Source: Candidatus Micrarchaeota archaeon (GTDB taxonomy: Archaea; Micrarchaeota; Micrarchaeia; Norongarragalinales; Norongarragalinaceae). From it: DNA of 64,000 bases. A model generated the notes under the pieces. That model saw only the letters and a list, made by a program, of their open reading frames with translations. It was not told the DNA's origin and ran no database searches. The translations under genes were made by a program, and so were the position numbers. Shown in pieces: positions 2,456 through 63,773 of the stretch (position 1 is the first letter of the stretch; each line of letters begins with the position of its first letter). The stretch lies in NCBI GenBank assembly GCA_016188965.1, contig JACPGT010000002.1, forward strand, positions 245,852-309,851, read 5' to 3'.

Positions 2456-3142
2456 CTATGTGCGGACTTTGCATTCTCCGAATCCGGCGTTGAGGTTGTC
2501 GCACGCGGCTTGGATTTCGTCCGTCTTGAGCCACTTTTGTTGCAATACCTGGGGGTCCATGACGTTGCTGTTGGGATGGAACGGCTGTAAGAACCACCGT
2601 TTGGCTGGTGCGATTTGCTTTCGGATTTCGCGCAGGTCTTCCACATCGAGGCCGGGTGCGACGGTGGTGCGGAATTCGTAGTCTACGCCTGAAAACTTGA
2701 TGATGTCGATGCTTTGGCGGATCTTGGACGGGTCCAAAAGCACGCCGGTGATTTGCGCGTACTTGGCATACGGCGCTTTGACGTCCATGGCCACGTAGTC
2801 GGCTAAATGGGCTTTGAGGATGCTTTCGAGGCGGTCCGGTTGCAGGCCGTTGGTGTCCAATTTGACGCTGAAGCCTTTTGCTTTGAGTTTTTCCATGAAC
2901 GCCGGCAAGTCGGGCCAGATGGTGGGCTCGCCGCCGGTGATGACGACGGCGTCGACGTATTTTTGTCGGTTCTCTAATTGCTGTAGGACGGTGTCTTCGT
3001 TGACGGTCGGCACGCGGCCGCAGGCCAAGTCGGCGTTGTAGCAGTAGCCGCAGCGCATGTTGCAGCTGGACAGAAAAACGATGCTGGCGACGCGGCTCGG
3101 GTAATCCACCAGTGAGGTCTTCTGAAAGCCGCCAATCTTCAT
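2456..3142 (-). CDS. nrdG: Anaerobic ribonucleoside-triphosphate reductase activating protein (radical SAM)
   Basis: CNMRCGYCYN (CxxxCxxC) near the N-terminus, about 228 aa, immediately downstream of nrdD sequences. Confidence 0.85.
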   Translation of the reverse strand: MKIGGFQKTSLVDYPSRVASIVFLSSCNMRCGYCYNADLACGRVPTVNEDTVLQQLENRQKYVDAVVITGGEPTIWPDLPAFMEKLKAKGFSVKLDTNGLQPDRLESILKAHLADYVAMDVKAPYAKYAQITGVLLDPSKIRQSIDIIKFSGVDYEFRTTVAPGLDVEDLREIRKQIAPAKRWFLQPFHPNSNVMDPQVLQQKWLKTDEIQAACDNLNAGFGECKVRT

Positions 3143-3147
3143 GGTTC

Positions 3148-3312
3148 TTACTCGCTCACGGCGATGGTGGCCGCCGTTGCGGGTTGGACGACGTATTCCT
3201 GGCGTTCGGCGAATTCGGCTTGCTTTCCTTCATTCCACTGGTCTACGGGCCTCAAATAGCCCACGACACGGCTGTACACTTCGCACCGGGTTCGCTGTTT
3301 TTCCTCTTCCAT
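3148..3312 (-). CDS. Stand-alone glycyl-radical segment of class III RNR (54 aa from the ATG; the frame is open back to 3390)
   Basis: Own translation: MEEEKQRTRCEVYSRVVGYLRPVDQWNEGKQAEFAERQEYVVQPATAATIAVSE*. RVVGY plus WN.GK is the NrdD C-terminal glycyl-radical signature. GAGGTGG lies 8 nt upstream of the ATG. The frame differs from the nrdD body. The stop is 5 nt before the nrdG start. Confidence 0.6.
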   Translation of the reverse strand: MEEEKQRTRCEVYSRVVGYLRPVDQWNEGKQAEFAERQEYVVQPATAATIAVSE

Positions 3313-3390
3313 CCCTGCCACCTCTTCATCCGTCTTCCAATCGCGTTTCGCGCCTTTTCCTTTTTTTGCTGCCTTTTTCCTCGTTGCTTT

Positions 3391-3450
3391 TCAGCAGCGG
3401 GGTTTGCAGCGGCTTTTTCCTTTCTTGGCGGTTTTCTTAGTCGGTTTCAT
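3391..3450 (-). CDS. Micro-ORF, 19 aa, Lys-rich with a Cys-containing C-terminus (MKPTKKTAKKGKSRCKPRC)
   Basis: ATG preceded by GGGAGG 8 nt upstream; TGA stop. Below the ORF-track size cutoff; found by manual translation. Confidence 0.35.
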   Translation of the reverse strand: MKPTKKTAKKGKSRCKPRC

Positions 3451-3471
3451 TCTTTCTTCCTCCCATATTTT

Positions 3472-3546
3472 TCAGCCGCAGCATCCTTTGCCGCAGCAGC
3501 CTTCTGTTTTGGCTTTCGTTTTTTTCTTGGCCGGTTTTTCCGTCAT
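3472..3546 (-). CDS. Micro-ORF, 24 aa, Lys-rich with a GCCGKGCCG C-terminus (MTEKPAKKKTKAKTEGCCGKGCCG)
   Basis: ATG preceded by GAGGGG about 10 nt upstream; TGA stop. Manual translation. Confidence 0.35.
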   Translation of the reverse strand: MTEKPAKKKTKAKTEGCCGKGCCG

Positions 3547-3566
3547 TGCCGTTTTTCCCCTCTTTT

Positions 3567-5684
3567 TCAGACCGTGCTGCACGTCGCGGCGGTTGTGCCG
3601 GCGTCGCCCGGTTTCAATTTTGCGGCGGCTTTGCTTTTCAGCCCGATGGGCATTTCGAGGTTTTCAGGCTGGGTCAATACGACGTATCCGATGTCTTCAT
3701 CGCAGCGCGGGCAGTACTCGTGCTCGCCCGCGAGGTACCCGTGCTTGGGGCAGACGCTGAACGTGGGCGTCAGCGTGAAGTACGGCAGGTGGAAGTTGTA
3801 CGCGATCTTCTTGACCATCTCGCGCGCCGTCCGCCAGTCCGAGATGCGCTCTCCGACGAATCCGTGCAGCACGGTGCCGCCGGTGTACTGCGTCTGCAGT
3901 TCGTCCTGGTGTTCCAGCGCTTCGAAGATGTCATCGGTGTGTCCGACGGGCAGGTGCGACGAGTTGGTGTAGTACGGCGCGGCGTGGCTTTCCTTGAACG
4001 CGCGGGCGTTGGCGACTTTGATGTCGGCAAAGCGCGCCGTGTCCAGGCGGGCCAGGCGGTAGGACGTGCCTTCTCCGGGCGTGGCTTCCAGGTTGTAGAT
4101 GTTGCCCGTCCGCTGCTGGTACGTGGACAGCCGCTCGCGCATGTGTTGCAGCACGCGGACGGCGAACTTCTTGCCATCCGGGTGTCCGATGTCCACGCCG
4201 AGCATGTTCTCGACAGATTCGTTCAGTCCGATGAGGCCGATGGTGGCGAAGTGGTTCTTCCAGAATTTGCCGAACGCCTGGCGGATGTCGCGCAGGTAGT
4301 ACTTCGAGTACGGGTAGAGGCCTTTTTCGGTGAATGATTCCAGCACTTCGCGTTTGAGTTCCAGGCTCTGCTGGGCCAGATCCATCAAGGCGTCGAGGCG
4401 TTCGAAGTACTCGCGCGTGTTCTTGGCCAAGAAGCCGATGCGGGGCAGGTTCAGCGTCACGACGCCGATGGAGCCGGTCAAGGGGTTGGCGCCGAAGAGG
4501 CCGCCGCCGCGCTTGCGCAGTTCGCGGTTGTCGAGCCTCAACCGGCAACACATGCTGCGGGCGTCTTCGGGCGACATGTCGGAGTTGACGAAATTCGAGA
4601 AGTACGGAACGCCGTATTTGGCCGTCATCTCGAAAATCTTCTGCAGGACCGGCGCGTCCCAGTCGAAACCCTTGGTGATGTTGTACGTCGGGATGGGGAA
4701 CGTGAATACGCGGCCGTTGGCGTCGCCTTCCATCATGACGTCGGCGAAGGCCTCGTTGAACATCTTCATCTCCGGCTCGAAATCGCCGTAGACTTCCTCG
4801 CGGAACTCGCCGCCGACGATGACCGGCTCGCCGGCCATCATCTTGGGCACCGTCAAATCCAGCGTGACGTTCGTGAACGGCGCCTGGAAGCCCACGCGGG
4901 TAGGGACGTTGATGTTGAACACGAATTCCTGCAACGCCTGCTTGACCTGGGTGTAGTCCAGGCCGTCGTAGCGGATGAACGGTGCCAAGTAGGTGTCGAA
5001 GCTGGAGAATGCCTGGGCGCCGGCGGCCTCGCCCTGCAAGGTGTAGAAGAAGTTGACGACTTGCCCCAAAGCGGTGCGGAAGTGTTTGGCCGGCTTGCTG
5101 GCGATCTTGCCGTGGACGTGGCCGAAGCCGTTCAGCAGCAGGTCCTTGAGGTCCCAACCGACGCAGTACGCGCCTAAGATGCCCAGGTCATGGATGTGAA
5201 AGTCGCCCGAGGCATGCGCTTCGGCGATGTTCGGCGGGTAGATCTTGTTCACCCAGTAGTTGGAGATGACGGCGGAGCTGATGTGGAAGTTGAGGCCTTG
5301 CAGGCTGTAGCTCATGTTGGCGTTTTCCTTGACGCGCCAGTCCGAGCGTTCCAGGTAGTTCTCGACCATGTCGGTCGAATTGAGCATGGAAAAGACGTTG
5401 CGGATGTCCTCGTGCTGCTTGCGGTAGAGGATGAATGCTTTGGCAGTCTTGGCGTGTCCTTCTTCGATGAGCACCTTCTCGACGGCATCCTGGACCTGTT
5501 CAACCGTGGGCGTGGCGCCGATTTGGGACAATTGGTCCACCACGACGCCGGCTAAGCGCTCCGCCGCGGCGCGGTCATGTCCCCCGACGGCGCGGGCGGC
5601 CTTGAAGATGGCATCCGCGATGCGGCTTTTGTCGAACGGCATGATGCGACCGTCGCGTTTCTTCACGAATTCGATTTTCCCCAT
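3567..5684 (-). CDS. nrdD: Anaerobic (class III) ribonucleoside-triphosphate reductase, catalytic body lacking the glycyl-radical motif
   Basis: Recognisable NrdD throughout (FVKKRDGRIMPFDKSRI ATP-cone-like N-terminus; ...HLPYFTLTPTFSVCPKHGYLAGEHEYCPRC zinc site). It ends in a non-homologous tail (DEDIGYVVLTQPENLEMPIGLKSKAAAKLKPGDAGTTAATCSTV*). Start chosen at ATG 5684 (GAGGGG 6 nt upstream); the ORF track extends to 5738. Confidence 0.85.
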   Translation of the reverse strand: MGKIEFVKKRDGRIMPFDKSRIADAIFKAARAVGGHDRAAAERLAGVVVDQLSQIGATPTVEQVQDAVEKVLIEEGHAKTAKAFILYRKQHEDIRNVFSMLNSTDMVENYLERSDWRVKENANMSYSLQGLNFHISSAVISNYWVNKIYPPNIAEAHASGDFHIHDLGILGAYCVGWDLKDLLLNGFGHVHGKIASKPAKHFRTALGQVVNFFYTLQGEAAGAQAFSSFDTYLAPFIRYDGLDYTQVKQALQEFVFNINVPTRVGFQAPFTNVTLDLTVPKMMAGEPVIVGGEFREEVYGDFEPEMKMFNEAFADVMMEGDANGRVFTFPIPTYNITKGFDWDAPVLQKIFEMTAKYGVPYFSNFVNSDMSPEDARSMCCRLRLDNRELRKRGGGLFGANPLTGSIGVVTLNLPRIGFLAKNTREYFERLDALMDLAQQSLELKREVLESFTEKGLYPYSKYYLRDIRQAFGKFWKNHFATIGLIGLNESVENMLGVDIGHPDGKKFAVRVLQHMRERLSTYQQRTGNIYNLEATPGEGTSYRLARLDTARFADIKVANARAFKESHAAPYYTNSSHLPVGHTDDIFEALEHQDELQTQYTGGTVLHGFVGERISDWRTAREMVKKIAYNFHLPYFTLTPTFSVCPKHGYLAGEHEYCPRCDEDIGYVVLTQPENLEMPIGLKSKAAAKLKPGDAGTTAATCSTV

Positions 5685-5912
5685 CGCGCTCCCCTCGTGC
5701 GGAAAAACCCTGCCTATTGTGTTTTTCCGGACTTTCAACTACCATATATAGGTATATAAGCGTTATCATAAACTTTCGGATAGTAACGCCGTTTTCACGT
5801 TTTTCGGCACGCGAATACGTTTCCTGACGATGGGTTCGGTCTACGCTGGGGCCGAGTTTGGGTCAAGTTGAAGGAAAAAAAGACGGAAACGGGTTTTGTG
5901 GGTCTTTCTGGG

Positions 5913-7016
5913 TTACTTGCGGCGGGCTGGCTTGCGTATGGGTTTGCCGTCCGCCGGCGCCATGTGCAGCGTGCGGATGGGAAAAGGGATGTGGATGCCT
6001 TGTTTGCGGAAGATGCGCAGGATGTTGCGCCGTAGGGAGGATGCGACGGCGAATCGCTCGCCGTAGTCCTTGACGCGCACCAAGGCGGCCAGTTCCACGG
6101 CGGAATCAAGGAATTCGTTGACCCGCACTTCCGGCTCGACACCTGCATCGGCTGCCGGAGATGATTTGACGGCTTCTTGCGCGGCCTGCATCAGGGACTT
6201 GAGCGCTTTGTCTACGTCTTCGCCGTATTCGATGCCGACTTTGACCATGACGGTGCGCGTCTCGCGGCCCTTGCTGTAGTTGACGATGACGGAGGCGGCT
6301 AATTTCTCGTTGGGGATGATGTGGATGGCGTTGGCCACGCCTTTGATGCGGGTGGAGCGCCACCCGATTTCCTCCACGGTGCCCTTGACGTCGGACTTGT
6401 CGTTGTCCAAGGCGATGATGTCGCCGCGCTGGATGGGCTTGTCCGACAGCAAATAGATGCCGGCGAAGAAGTTCTTCAGCGAGTCCTGCAATGCCAGCGC
6501 CACGGCCAGGCCGGCCACTCCGAGGCCTGCGATGAGGGGCCCGATTTCCACGCCCAATTCGCTTAAGAGGATGGCCAGGCCGGCGAAGTAGACGGCGGCC
6601 ATGATGAGCTTGCGCACGATGGGGAATATGTCGCCGACGCGGGCCTTTTCCGCGCCGACTTCGACGAGATACCATTTCATCACGGCGTTGAGGGTGCGGG
6701 CCACGGCGTGCGCTACGGCCACGATCAATGCTAAGAAGAGCAGGCCGTCCAAGTTGCGTCCGAATACCGTCAAGCCGGGGGTGACGATTTGCAGGCCGAG
6801 GTAGGCGCCCCCGATGGAAAAGAATAATTTGAGCGGTCCGCGGAGGTTTTCGAAGAGAAAATCGTCCAGCTGGGTCTTGGTCTTGGCCAGAAGCGGCCGG
6901 ATCAGCTTGTCAATGAAAACGACGATGAATTCGGCCAAGAGGATGGAGCCGATGAAAAAGCCTAGTGCCAACGCCCACTGGGCCAGGTTGATGTCGAATC
7001 CGGCGAACAGGACCAT
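5913..7016 (-). CDS. Small-conductance mechanosensitive channel (MscS family)
   Basis: N-terminal TM helices plus the MscS beta-domain pattern (PIQRGDIIALD...GTVEEIGWRSTRIK...IIPNEKL). Confidence 0.8.
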   Translation of the reverse strand: MVLFAGFDINLAQWALALGFFIGSILLAEFIVVFIDKLIRPLLAKTKTQLDDFLFENLRGPLKLFFSIGGAYLGLQIVTPGLTVFGRNLDGLLFLALIVAVAHAVARTLNAVMKWYLVEVGAEKARVGDIFPIVRKLIMAAVYFAGLAILLSELGVEIGPLIAGLGVAGLAVALALQDSLKNFFAGIYLLSDKPIQRGDIIALDNDKSDVKGTVEEIGWRSTRIKGVANAIHIIPNEKLAASVIVNYSKGRETRTVMVKVGIEYGEDVDKALKSLMQAAQEAVKSSPAADAGVEPEVRVNEFLDSAVELAALVRVKDYGERFAVASSLRRNILRIFRKQGIHIPFPIRTLHMAPADGKPIRKPARRK

Positions 7017-18328: not shown

Positions 18329-18640
18329 ATGGGTAGTGGAAATGGCCGCAATATTTTTGTTCACCAGGACATCCTGGACCGAATCAACCGCGTCTTTGAT
18401 TTGGATCGCGACTCGATTATTGGCCGCGTCTCGCGCCTGACGCCAAACGAAAAAGCCAGGATTTTGATGGAGCAGCGCCTGGAGCAGCTGGAGGCAGAGG
18501 TCCAAGTCAAGAATCTTTTAGGATCGCCGCGCTCATTCGTACCCCCGGTAAATACGCTTGCGCAGGAACTAAGTCGCGCACCGGCCAAGATTAAAAAAGG
18601 GAAGAAGTCAGCAGATTCAGGCTTAACTATGGAGGGGTAG
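18329..18640 (+). CDS. Hypothetical 103-aa protein, divergent from the provirus operon and ending inside the tRNA-Leu 5' end
   Basis: ATG 18329 with AGGTGG 6 nt upstream. The stop TAG is at 18638-18640, within GGAGGGGTAG of the tRNA. Possible lysogeny regulator (by position only). Confidence 0.45.
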   Translation: MGSGNGRNIFVHQDILDRINRVFDLDRDSIIGRVSRLTPNEKARILMEQRLEQLEAEVQVKNLLGSPRSFVPPVNTLAQELSRAPAKIKKGKKSADSGLTMEG

Positions 18641-18767
18641 CAAAGCCTGGTCAAACGCGACAGACTCAAGATCCCAGGCCCTATCCGTTAAAGAAGAAGC
18701 CTTTCGGGCTTTGGTTGGGGAATCTGTTCCCCTAGCGGGTTCGAGGGTTCAAATCCCTCCCCCTCCA
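18631..18767 (+). tRNA. tRNA-Leu(CAA) with a 51-nt intron (18671..18721) at position 37/38
   Basis: Acceptor GGAGGGG/CCCCTCC, T-arm GAGGG-TTCAAAT-CCCTC, anticodon stem ACAGA/TCTGT, loop CTCAAG|A, long variable arm. Mature length is 86 nt. The D-stem is weak (A12-C23 mismatch). Confidence 0.8.
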
Positions 18768-62478: not shown

Positions 62479-62654
62479 GTGAACCCCTCTTTTTTGCCTC
62501 TAAAAAATCGTCAGATTTGGTTTGGCTACATCAGCGGGCAGCTTTTTAATAAAGGTTTCTTCCTCGGCCCGCCCTCTTTTTCTAAGTGGGTTTTCGTCCG
62601 GTGGCGTGAACCCGATTGGGTTTTAAGCCTTATTAGGCAAAAGGTAACTGCAAC

Positions 62655-62939
62655 GGGCTAGTCGGAGGGTTAAGGGTCCTCTGGCAGCGCCAACCCCTTT
62701 GAGGCGGACGAAAGCCGAACGGGCGGGTGATGCGTTTGCGTCCTGGCCCGGAGACAAGGCGTTGACGTCTTGCCTTGCGTTACGTATTGCGCCGCGAACC
62801 GAGCCAGGCCGGAAGGAGCAACTCTAAGCAGAACAACGCGTGCTCGCAAGATCCAAGGCCGAGCCGGACTTCGGATCACCAGGCCGTGAACCATCCTTCC
62901 ACCGCTGGCACGCCCGTTGCACCTTTCTCACTCCGGGGC
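62655..62939 (+). ncRNA. Signal recognition particle RNA (archaeal 7S-type); ends approximate
   Basis: Conserved helix-8 core CCAGGCCGGAAGGAGCAAC (GGAA tetraloop) on the plus strand. GC-rich, about 285 nt; TATA-like ttatta lies about 20 nt upstream and a T6 run immediately follows (62940-62945). Confidence 0.7.
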
Positions 62940-62969
62940 TTTTTTAACCGCGTCCTGCCTATCTTTTCC

Positions 62970-63773
62970 ATGCGCCGCATGTTCATCGGAGTCCTACTGG
63001 CCGCCACCATGATCGCCTTCTTCCTCGGCGTCGCGTCCAACCTTTCCATCCGATCGGCCCCGTCGGAACTGGCGCTGCCCACGCCCGCCCTTTCCGATTC
63101 GTCCCTAACGCCCATCGTGACGGTCCAACCCCCGCTGGAGACCCGGATCGAGGCCGTCACACGCAAAACCGTCATCCGCCTGCCGGCCGTGGACAAGGAA
63201 GGTCAAGGCGCATTGGCCGACTTGACGGTGGAAGCCGTCACCGGAAAGGGCCGCGTCTTCATCGGTTTTGACACCAGCCCTTTGGTCAATTCCGACACGC
63301 AAGGCAGCCTGCGCATCGCGTTGGACGTCGCCCGCCGCCTGTCCAACGCCAACACCTCCGGTTGGGACGTGTTCTACACCTTTTCGACGCAGTCCGACGT
63401 CGTCGGCGGCAAGTCCGCCGGCGCGGCCGCCGCCGTCGCCACGCTTTCCGTCCTGACCGGCTCCCGCTTGCGCTCCGACACGTTGTTGACCGGTACGGTC
63501 GAGCCTGACGGCTCCATCGGCCCGGTGGGAAAAATCCTGGAAAAAGCGAAAGCCGCCAAGGCCGCAGGTTACCGCAAGTTCCTCGTGCCGTCCGGCGAGT
63601 CAAGCCAGAACGTCGTGGTGGAGGAATGCCAGCAGAAAGGCGTTCCCGGCGGCATCGTCCGCGAGTGCTCGTCCCGCACCGAAAAGCTGGACGTCGCCTC
63701 ACAGGTGCCAGGCATGGACGTAATCGAAGTCCGCGACGTACTCGAGGCGTACCGGCTCATCAAGGCGGGTTGA
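62970..63773 (+). CDS. Membrane-anchored Lon-like S16 serine protease domain protein (no AAA+ module)
   Basis: Start at ATG 62970 (MRRMFIGVLLAATMIAFFLGV). GKSAGAAAAVA (catalytic Ser) and GPVGKILEKAKAAKAAG (catalytic Lys region). The upstream ORF-track extension overlaps the SRP RNA. Confidence 0.7.
   Translation: MRRMFIGVLLAATMIAFFLGVASNLSIRSAPSELALPTPALSDSSLTPIVTVQPPLETRIEAVTRKTVIRLPAVDKEGQGALADLTVEAVTGKGRVFIGFDTSPLVNSDTQGSLRIALDVARRLSNANTSGWDVFYTFSTQSDVVGGKSAGAAAAVATLSVLTGSRLRSDTLLTGTVEPDGSIGPVGKILEKAKAAKAAGYRKFLVPSGESSQNVVVEECQQKGVPGGIVRECSSRTEKLDVASQVPGMDVIEVRDVLEAYRLIKAG

Follow-up and report, generated by a model that had tools for sequence, protein, structure and literature searches.

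A probable two-chain class III ribonucleotide reductase with a separately encoded glycyl-radical segment in Micrarchaeota and related archaea

Known enzymes in pieces and the locus under study

Glycyl-radical enzymes are described with the radical glycine at the C-terminus of the catalytic chain, and to our knowledge the only free glycyl-radical module is GrcA, a repair part. In this work we describe a locus of Candidatus Micrarchaeota archaeon (GenBank assembly GCA_016188965.1, contig JACPGT010000002.1, positions 245,852 to 309,851) in which nrdD, the gene for class III (anaerobic) ribonucleotide reductase (RNR), comes in two parts: a catalytic body and a small open reading frame (ORF) for the glycyl-radical segment, followed by the activase gene nrdG. 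It is likely that this locus encodes a two-chain enzyme. The whole 64,000-nt stretch of DNA that was analysed is called the window, and positions given without another label are counted from its first nucleotide.

The locus belongs to the same family, and has the same parts, as the one-chain NrdD and NrdG of Thermotoga maritima (4COI/4U3E), phage T4 (1H7A) and an intact homologue from Bathyarchaeia (P0017). These share with it the ATP-cone, the barrel, the MCCR finger loop, the zinc ribbon, the RVVGY loop and an adjacent radical S-adenosylmethionine (SAM) activase. The difference lies at the junction. In one-chain NrdDs the glycine loop follows 3-10 residues past the zinc ribbon on the same chain (CPKCGANCEVYSRVVGY), whereas in the window the two are parted by a stop codon, the spacer and a further start codon. 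Moreover, the window body carries an extra D-E-E-I-G-Y tail, which is lacking in intact enzymes.

A precedent for a radical module acting from outside is GrcA (YfiD), since the free module can be activated and can complement the body of a glycyl-radical enzyme (PMC8683613). Like the small protein of the window, hereafter the mini-subunit, GrcA is a small stand-alone module matching the C-terminal glycyl-radical part of its enzyme, and it acts non-covalently, via the activase of pyruvate formate-lyase (PFL) (PMC8683613). However, GrcA rescues an oxygen-cleaved enzyme that normally has a glycine domain of its own, whereas the window body never has one and the module would be obligatory. GrcA is also larger (127 aa, as opposed to 38-73 aa for the mini-subunits) and, unlike GrcA, the mini-subunit is encoded inside an nrdD-nrdG operon. 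The mini-subunit is homologous to NrdD (PF13597) and not to PFL, with no PF01228 match at E <= 1 in Pfam. By analogy, the split RNR would work most like GrcA/YfiD together with cleaved PFL, yet it stands outside the GrcA family.

DPANN archaea, e.g. Nanoarchaeum equitans, have genes split into separately translated halves that reassemble. Those pieces are generic half-proteins, whereas the small piece here is a radical-cofactor module, and in the literature nrdD was not found among the split genes described for DPANN archaea. In 2015 NrdJa/NrdJb, the class II enzyme of Pseudomonas aeruginosa, was stated to be the sole split RNR on record outside viruses (Crona et al., PMC4520616). In that case too the catalytic chain is split at one conserved site into adjacent operon genes, the small piece is the C-terminal module and both pieces are needed (PMC4520616). 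However, NrdJa/NrdJb is B12-dependent and its NrdJb carries a redox-active cysteine tail, whereas in the class III enzyme of the window it is the radical site that is separated. Phages also have nrd genes in pieces, such as T4 nrdD (sunY) with a group I intron, Lactococcus phage 949 nrdD-a/b and Aeromonas phage phiAS4 nrdD, and the separate polypeptides of the Aeh1 nrdA 'genes in pieces' assemble into a working enzyme (PMC3653736, PMC3045599). The phage breaks are due to mobile introns, inteins or homing endonucleases at various positions in single phages, whereas at the archaeal nrdD break no mobile element was found and one fixed structural boundary is conserved across archaeal phyla.

A split class III enzyme goes unmentioned in a 2026 review of the glycyl-radical enzymes (PMC13450708). 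Nor did the full-text literature open to searching, outside of which many subscription papers lie, yield any account of a class III RNR split in a cellular organism; an earlier mention is possible. Sequence databases already contain small genes of the split type, most of them under the name 'hypothetical protein' or listed as a 40-50-aa 'anaerobic ribonucleoside-triphosphate reductase'.

Position and conservation of the break

The features of the locus are collected in Table 1. The nrdD body comprises an ATP-cone, a catalytic barrel with an SMCCR finger loop and a zinc ribbon, and the glycyl-radical motif is absent. It scores 1046 bits against NCBIfam PRK08270 (cut-off 548; profile positions 4-651 of 684) and 527 bits against TIGR02487 (cut-off 326), and Pfam detects the ATP-cone and NRDD (PF13597; E-value 1.8e-185, positions 1-529 of 562). 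Its product is 100% identical to a deposited 'ribonucleoside triphosphate reductase [Candidatus Micrarchaeota archaeon]' (P0001). In alignments the body retains all invariant NrdD residues, including the double cysteine of the SMCCR finger loop (C379/C380, in SMCCRLRLD), and it thus has the finger loop with a catalytic cysteine (MGCR or MCCR motif) by which NrdDs are recognized (PMC9669993). The double-cysteine motif has been tied to enzymes able to use formate or thiol reductants (Burnim et al., PMC9669993). Residues C645, H648, C658 and C661 of the zinc ribbon, for which metal binding is predicted from sequence, are also invariant. The chain ends 44 residues past the ribbon, with no RVxGY motif on the same polypeptide. 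This tail opens with the clade signature C-D-E-[ED]-[IVL]-G-[YF], shares its end AATCS[TA][VI] with the closest relatives and has a predicted local distance difference test score (pLDDT) below 50 in AlphaFold.

The mini-subunit ORF lies in a different frame from that of the body. Its translation includes MEEEKQRTRCEVYSRVVGYLRPVDQWNEGKQAEF... and MEEEKQRTRCEVYSRVVGYLRPVDQWNEGKQAEFAERQEY..., and the putative radical glycine is G18 (codon 3261-3259). The protein matches the very end of the NrdD profiles, namely Pfam NRDD positions 532-562 of 562 (40.2 bits, cut-off 26.2), PRK08270 positions 649-683 and TIGR02487 positions 549-580 of 581, and it is 100% identical to a protein annotated 'hypothetical protein HYV43_01775' (P0121). 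The nrdG product is an NrdG2 (TIGR02495, 194 bits, cut-off 131; Pfam Radical_SAM and Fer4_12). The only TATA-like boxes on the coding strand of the region stand upstream of nrdD and may mark a promoter for the whole unit of nrdD body, small ORF and nrdG. Neither a terminator-like hairpin nor a run of >=4 T was found on the coding strand between body and small ORF, which, together with the position of the TATA-like boxes, is consistent with a single transcript.

Table 1. Features of the nrdD-nrdG locus, in window positions; asterisks stand for stop codons.
Feature	Position	Strand	Details
nrdG, radical-SAM activase	2456..3142	minus	228 aa; ATG 5 nt past the small-ORF stop
Glycyl-radical mini-subunit gene	3148..3312	minus	54 aa; ATG 3312, TAA 3150-3148; alternative GTG at 3321
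Shine-Dalgarno-like GAGGTGG	3318..3324	minus	5 nt upstream of the small-ORF ATG
Spacer, body stop to small-ORF start	3313..3566	minus	254 nt, A-rich
Tiny ORF-B	3391..3450	minus	MKPTKKTAKKGKSRCKPRC*; GGGAGG upstream at 3464-3459
Tiny ORF-A	3472..3546	minus	MTEKPAKKKTKAKTEGCCGKGCCG*; GAGGGG upstream at 3562-3557
nrdD body	3567..5684	minus	705 aa from ATG 5684
nrdD body stop	3569-3567	minus	TGA
nrdD body, alternative start	5738	minus	upstream in-frame TTG; 723 aa
Body tail, DEDIGYVV...AATCSTV	3570..3701	minus	44 residues; no counterpart in intact NrdDs
Zinc-ribbon motif, C645-P-K-H648 ... C658-P-R-C661	3702..3752	minus	CPKH-x9-CPRC; last segment homologous to intact NrdDs
TATATA, twice	5745..5758	minus	candidate archaeal promoter upstream of nrdD; pattern match

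A preliminary description of this DNA had read the NrdD ORF as normal up to the zinc site, which it put at about 3690-3740, and as continuing through some 40 non-homologous residues to a TGA at 3567-3569. This reading stands, with the ribbon now placed at 3752-3702 and 44 residues counted in the tail (3701-3570). That the radical-site C-terminus sits in an ORF of its own (3148-3312), with its own ATG and in another frame, is borne out by Pfam, NCBIfam and tblastn, and the small ORF does end 5 nt before nrdG, whose ATG is at 3142. The GAGGTGG site is present as described, at 5 nt from the ATG and not at 8. The separation of about 400 nt is true of the window and not typical of its relatives, where the median gap is 10 nt. 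Two checks that the description had proposed, a comparison of orthologous nrdD-nrdG loci and an alignment to the Thermotoga NrdD, found the same break in 77 loci and placed it between residues 609 and 611 (4COI), respectively.

In this alignment residues 101-609 of T. maritima NrdD match the body and residues 611-644 the small ORF, whose glycine stands opposite residue 621, in RIVGY. Likewise, in tblastn with the intact Bathyarchaeia homologue P0017, residues 1-660 fall at 5675..3702 and residues 662-705 at 3291..3172, with 70% identity to the body and 66% between the C-terminal segment and the small ORF. As the body ends and the small ORF begins at adjacent positions of intact NrdDs, the gene is cut cleanly between zinc ribbon and glycine loop: no residues are missing, and some 410 nt stand in between as an insertion. 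Three sequencing runs, each assembled independently in Logan, show 0 mismatches over 700 nt (window 3800..3101), and their agreement excludes an assembly error for the window. Runs SRR12113422, SRR12113419 and SRR12113385 contain the locus.

Loci of relatives were gathered by exact-protein look-up, by a genome-contig scan, which gave one close relative only, and by a far richer metagenome scan. A shortened body with a separate small ORF was found in 75 of them, and with two more recognized by eye (L051/L054) there are 77 split loci; 11 of the gathered loci have a one-chain nrdD. A shortened body without a small ORF was not found in any of the loci having enough downstream sequence. The small ORFs of the split loci encode 38-73 aa from a Met start and follow the pattern M-x(2-20)-(K/R)T(K/R)-CEVYSRVVGYLRPV-x-QWN-x-GK, and the radical-SAM ORF comes next in 67 of the 75 loci. 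The source labels are Micrarchaeota, Diapherotrites, Nanoarchaeia and Pacearchaeota, plus one 'Azambacteria' metagenome-assembled genome (MAG). In the latter (GCA_016234725.1, L013/L014), labelled Candidatus Azambacteria, a bacterium of the candidate phyla radiation (CPR), the small ORF of the split nrdD-small ORF-nrdG locus has no Shine-Dalgarno (SD)-like site; the locus may have reached this CPR-labelled MAG by horizontal transfer, or else through faulty binning or labelling. Across the 77 loci the split architecture is seen down to about 60% identity. Among the closest 120 body homologues, 23 (67-93% identity) stop shortly past CPxC, with the signature C-D-E-E-[IVL]-G-[YF] in common and without RVVGY, while the remaining 97, mostly from Bathyarchaeia, read through the junction on one chain (CPKCGANCEVYSRVVGY).

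The distance from the body stop to the small-ORF ATG varies from -49 to +339 nt (median 10, 75 loci), and the frame offset between them is 0 in 21, 1 in 31 and 2 in 23 of these loci. In 65 of the 75, the 20 nt ahead of the small ORF contain an SD-like 4-mer (GGAG, GAGG, AGGT or GGTG). This spread of gaps and offsets, together with the SD-like sites, argues for independent and often coupled translation and not for a single frameshift or bypass; indeed, neither the fixed frame relation nor the conserved slippery or recoding site of a recoded gene was found. In the 26-codon core of the small ORF, the window differs from three relatives (L001, L010 and L011) by 12-13 synonymous and 1-2 non-synonymous changes; the proportion of synonymous differences (pS) is 0.7-0.8, which is saturated, and that of non-synonymous differences (pN) is 0.016-0.03. 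The small ORF is thus under strong purifying selection. The best 120 word-indexed matches to the 54-aa protein are all short (39-91 aa) and carry the motif, 118 of them starting with Met. The best 150 cluster representatives at 50% identity also all carry it (44-136 aa; 139 with a Met start), the mini-subunit family comprising at least 150 such clusters. The split itself is the norm of the clade, and the window is unusual for its long spacer.

Two relatives have further peculiarities. A split-type NrdD body of 1080 aa (P0005), encoded on an 8.5-kb NCBI contig and ending CPKCDEEIGFVSELQKAAATGGM, contains an intein (PF14528), and its small subunit is P0136. In a locus from Nanoarchaeia (L015, CAZVTI010000004.1; 1-3403) a class I/II-type RNR gene (PF00317, PF02867, TSCPD) stands directly upstream of the split nrdD, followed by genes for dUTPase and dCMP deaminase, making a compact cluster for deoxyribonucleoside triphosphate synthesis. 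Some split-type genomes therefore own a second RNR.

A two-chain enzyme and its alternatives

We consider it probable that the locus encodes an obligate two-chain class III RNR, whose glycyl-radical mini-subunit acts in trans and is activated by NrdG. From the established mechanism of the family and from the GrcA/YfiD precedent we infer how the chains would assemble, become activated and carry out catalysis. The body would supply the barrel, the allosteric ATP-cone and the zinc ribbon, while the glycyl-radical loop would be translated separately, as a 54-aa protein with a start codon of its own, from a gene of the same operon just upstream of nrdG. NrdG, a radical-SAM enzyme, would abstract the C-alpha hydrogen of Gly18 in the mini-subunit, which is expected to dock non-covalently in the barrel of the body, at the place of the C-terminal domain of one-chain NrdDs. 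The glycyl radical would then generate a thiyl radical on the finger-loop cysteine and so start nucleotide reduction.

Some points weigh against this proposal. AlphaFold2 was run on the concatenated window body and small ORF. In the first run MAFFT had aligned the intact C-termini to the IGY tail of the body, and the peptide had no alignment support. For the second run the alignment had 146 rows, including 99 small proteins, and residues 721-740, in the peptide part, reached pLDDT 53-79. In both runs, however, neither the glycine loop nor the finger loop reached pLDDT 50, leaving the predicted docking without support from the model; double-cysteine finger loops are known to be modelled by AlphaFold with low confidence (PMC9669993). 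On the most closely related contig (L009 = L020; body 93% identical) the small ORF (3965-4111) reads MEEKQRTKCEVYSRVVG*LRPVDQRNEGK, where TAA replaces the Tyr codon of G-Y and W is changed to R. The small gene can, as this sequence suggests, decay or be replaced in some lineages; L009 may represent decay in its lineage, or a working copy may lie elsewhere. It must also be taken into account that the window is 64 kb of a genome, so that a second, intact nrdD elsewhere is possible.

The preliminary description had left three explanations side by side, namely a split RNR with a trans-acting mini-subunit, an intervening element that is removed, and indel errors or decay. The last of these, in which homopolymer errors or decay have broken nrdD and the downstream ORF is an out-of-frame remnant, can draw on the A-rich spacer with its many homopolymers and on the stop at the Tyr codon in L009. 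It is nevertheless hardly conceivable, because the three independent assemblies are identical over 700 nt, the body retains every invariant NrdD residue and the small ORF is equipped with an ATG and a ribosome-binding site (RBS) of its own; moreover, 77 loci of DPANN archaea share the architecture, and in the small ORF synonymous changes are saturated while amino-acid changes are almost nil. The case against simple decay already made in the preliminary description thus agrees with the synteny of relatives, with the start and RBS and with the purifying selection on the small ORF. Removal of an intervening element fares little better, also in the wider form that the two parts are joined into a one-chain NrdD by protein trans-splicing, an intron, or a programmed frameshift or bypass. 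In its favour, group I introns and inteins do interrupt nrdD genes of phages (PMC3653736), the split-type relative P0005 bears an intein elsewhere in its body, and a fused version with the same linker is viable, to judge from two loci described below (L045/L046). However, between 2000 and 7000 Rfam detected neither an intron nor any other RNA family at E <= 10, the search of the window at the gathering threshold gave none at the break either, and a group I or II intron or structured RNA in the spacer was rejected on this ground. No intein domain was found by Pfam in the body tail or in the small ORF, and a split intein would not fit into the short flanks of some relatives, such as L017 with a 12-aa tail and a 0-nt gap. 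The range of gaps and the even spread of offsets exclude a single recoding mechanism, and the Met starts with RBS are conserved on the small ORFs; joining is therefore very unlikely.

A further alternative is that the small protein is translated and serves as a GrcA-like spare part or regulator for an intact enzyme elsewhere, the body having another catalytic role or none. The coverage of 64 kb of genome, the class I/II-type RNR gene beside the split nrdD of L015, with alternative RNRs in some such genomes, and the apparently damaged small ORF next to an intact body in L009 would all be in keeping with it. Even so, we regard it as improbable: the small ORF is closest to NrdD C-termini and not to PFL or GrcA, it sits between the shortened body and nrdG, tblastn with P0017 found no second nrdD within the window, and the conservation of the body is that of an active enzyme, its finger-loop cysteines, zinc ribbon and ATP-cone being invariant. 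The analogy with GrcA drawn in the preliminary description holds for a free glycyl-radical module and fails for a mere spare part, the mini-subunit being here the sole carrier of the glycine. The split RNR with a trans-acting mini-subunit, in turn, is supported by the synteny in 77 loci, the own start and RBS, and the strong purifying selection.

Some mini-subunits have cysteine-rich ends. At least two Cys occur in the last 10 residues of 13 of 120 small subunits and of none of 120 large homologues, and CxC or CxxC tails (..TDCAC, ..KCGCE, ..NCEEC) are found in 11 small subunits (P0136, P0145, P0161, P0176, P0178, P0184, P0198, P0209, P0211, P0218 and P0221). The body tails of L035, L072 and L075 are grouped with this observation. 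In one small subunit (P0297, 136 aa) the chain also includes a fused thioredoxin-like domain containing CPNC, whose match to Pfam Thioredoxin_2 (E 7.9e-5) is below threshold. These sequences suggest that the mini-subunit sometimes also has a redox-tail role.

A tentative and rather doubtful extension of the two-chain proposal is that the mini-subunit is an exchangeable 'radical cartridge'. NrdG would activate a free 5-7 kDa peptide. Oxygen would destroy the glycyl radical and cleave the chain at that glycine; only this peptide would have to be replaced afterwards and the 80-kDa body would be spared. The C-terminal Cys tails or thioredoxin-like fusion of some lineages, or the Cys-terminated tiny ORFs of the window, might deliver reducing equivalents. 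The repair principle of GrcA would thus be built in and obligate, which would suit tiny-genome archaea at oxic/anoxic interfaces.

The spacer, the origin of the split and its significance

The spacer of the window is the third longest of 75 (median 10 nt) and is full of homopolymers. Both of its tiny ORFs follow a GGAGG-like site and encode a peptide that is rich in Lys at the N-terminus and has a Cys motif at the C-terminus, and ORF-B looks like a paralogue of ORF-A. The orthologue of ORF-A in L009 is MKEKTTKKKTKAKGEGCCGKCCG*, in which RBS and start are kept, an in-frame 3-nt indel is present and the end is TAA; that of ORF-B is MTPSKKTAKKSKSRCKPRC*. The tiny ORFs of L009 (3651-3796) keep RBS, start and stop, and about half of the differences are synonymous and about half amino-acid-changing. 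In L001 there is a single hybrid copy, MATKKTAKKSTKSKSRCGPRKC* (about 6165-6240). No tiny ORFs were found in more distant relatives, nor any Pfam match for them. The long spacer of the window with its two tiny ORFs is a lineage-specific expansion. Recoding of TGA, or selenocysteine, was considered as well, the body and both tiny ORFs ending in TGA, two of them right after Cys-rich stretches. It was rejected, since TGA is the commonest stop among the 52 long ORFs of the window, closing 23 of them, and the orthologue of ORF-A in L009 ends in TAA.

At this locus the 5' part of the small ORF (..RT(K/R)CEVY..) has repeatedly undergone partial duplication in tandem. In L011 a perfect 40-nt direct repeat (5056-5095, 5205-5245) surrounds a degenerate copy of this part of ~108 nt, in L009 a diverged copy of the glycine-loop segment lies upstream (3836-3965), and four small proteins (P0138, P0139, P0146 and P0171) open with an in-frame degenerate copy. 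A mobile element in the L009 and L011 spacers was considered and rejected, as the insert of ~90-110 nt follows the duplicated 5' end of the small ORF and is not repeated in the window or in other fetched loci. The duplicated segments have no Rfam match, and by its sequence the insert resembles a degenerate tandem repeat of the glycine-loop segment. MAFFT places the D-E-E-I-G-Y tail of the body opposite the RVVGY of intact enzymes. In view of this alignment and of the recurrent duplications, one may speculate that the split started with a duplication of the 3' end, followed by the appearance of a stop and a start in the linker.

Two loci on JGI (Joint Genome Institute) contigs (L045, Ga0180732_1002456; L046, Ga0180015_1000302) have a one-chain nrdD that retains the linker of the split clade, CDKENNYKEGDAESALKRTKCEVYSRVVGY. 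In a neighbour-joining tree these fused forms nest among split forms, and the intact Bathyarchaeia clade adjoins the split Micrarchaeota clade. The fused forms are either re-fusions or survivors of the state before the split; the deep nodes of the trees are unresolved and leave the number of splitting and fusion events undecided.

Apart from this locus, an Rfam tRNA match of 137 nt (39.7 bits) lies at 18631-18767 on the plus strand and is absent from the ARAGORN output; this is probably an archaeal tRNA gene with an intron, and L011 has a comparably long tRNA match at 379-514. A signal recognition particle RNA match (Rfam RF01854; 67.1 bits, gathering score 60) at 62653-62917, also on the plus strand, overlaps the 5' end of a mechanically listed 332-aa ORF (62775-63773), which may for this reason be spurious or have a later start.

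In one-chain enzymes the glycine loop must swing out of the barrel for activation. If the two-chain enzyme is real, it would be a ready-made system for asking how the activase reaches this loop, and direct tests of radical-module exchange and of the repair of oxygen damage would become possible. It would also bring to class III the layout known from class I RNRs, in which a separate subunit carries the radical. Genes of 40-70 aa are often annotated as hypothetical or missed, and the bodies are open to confusion with shortened pseudogenes. Such gaps in annotation could distort the metabolic reconstructions of DPANN archaea.

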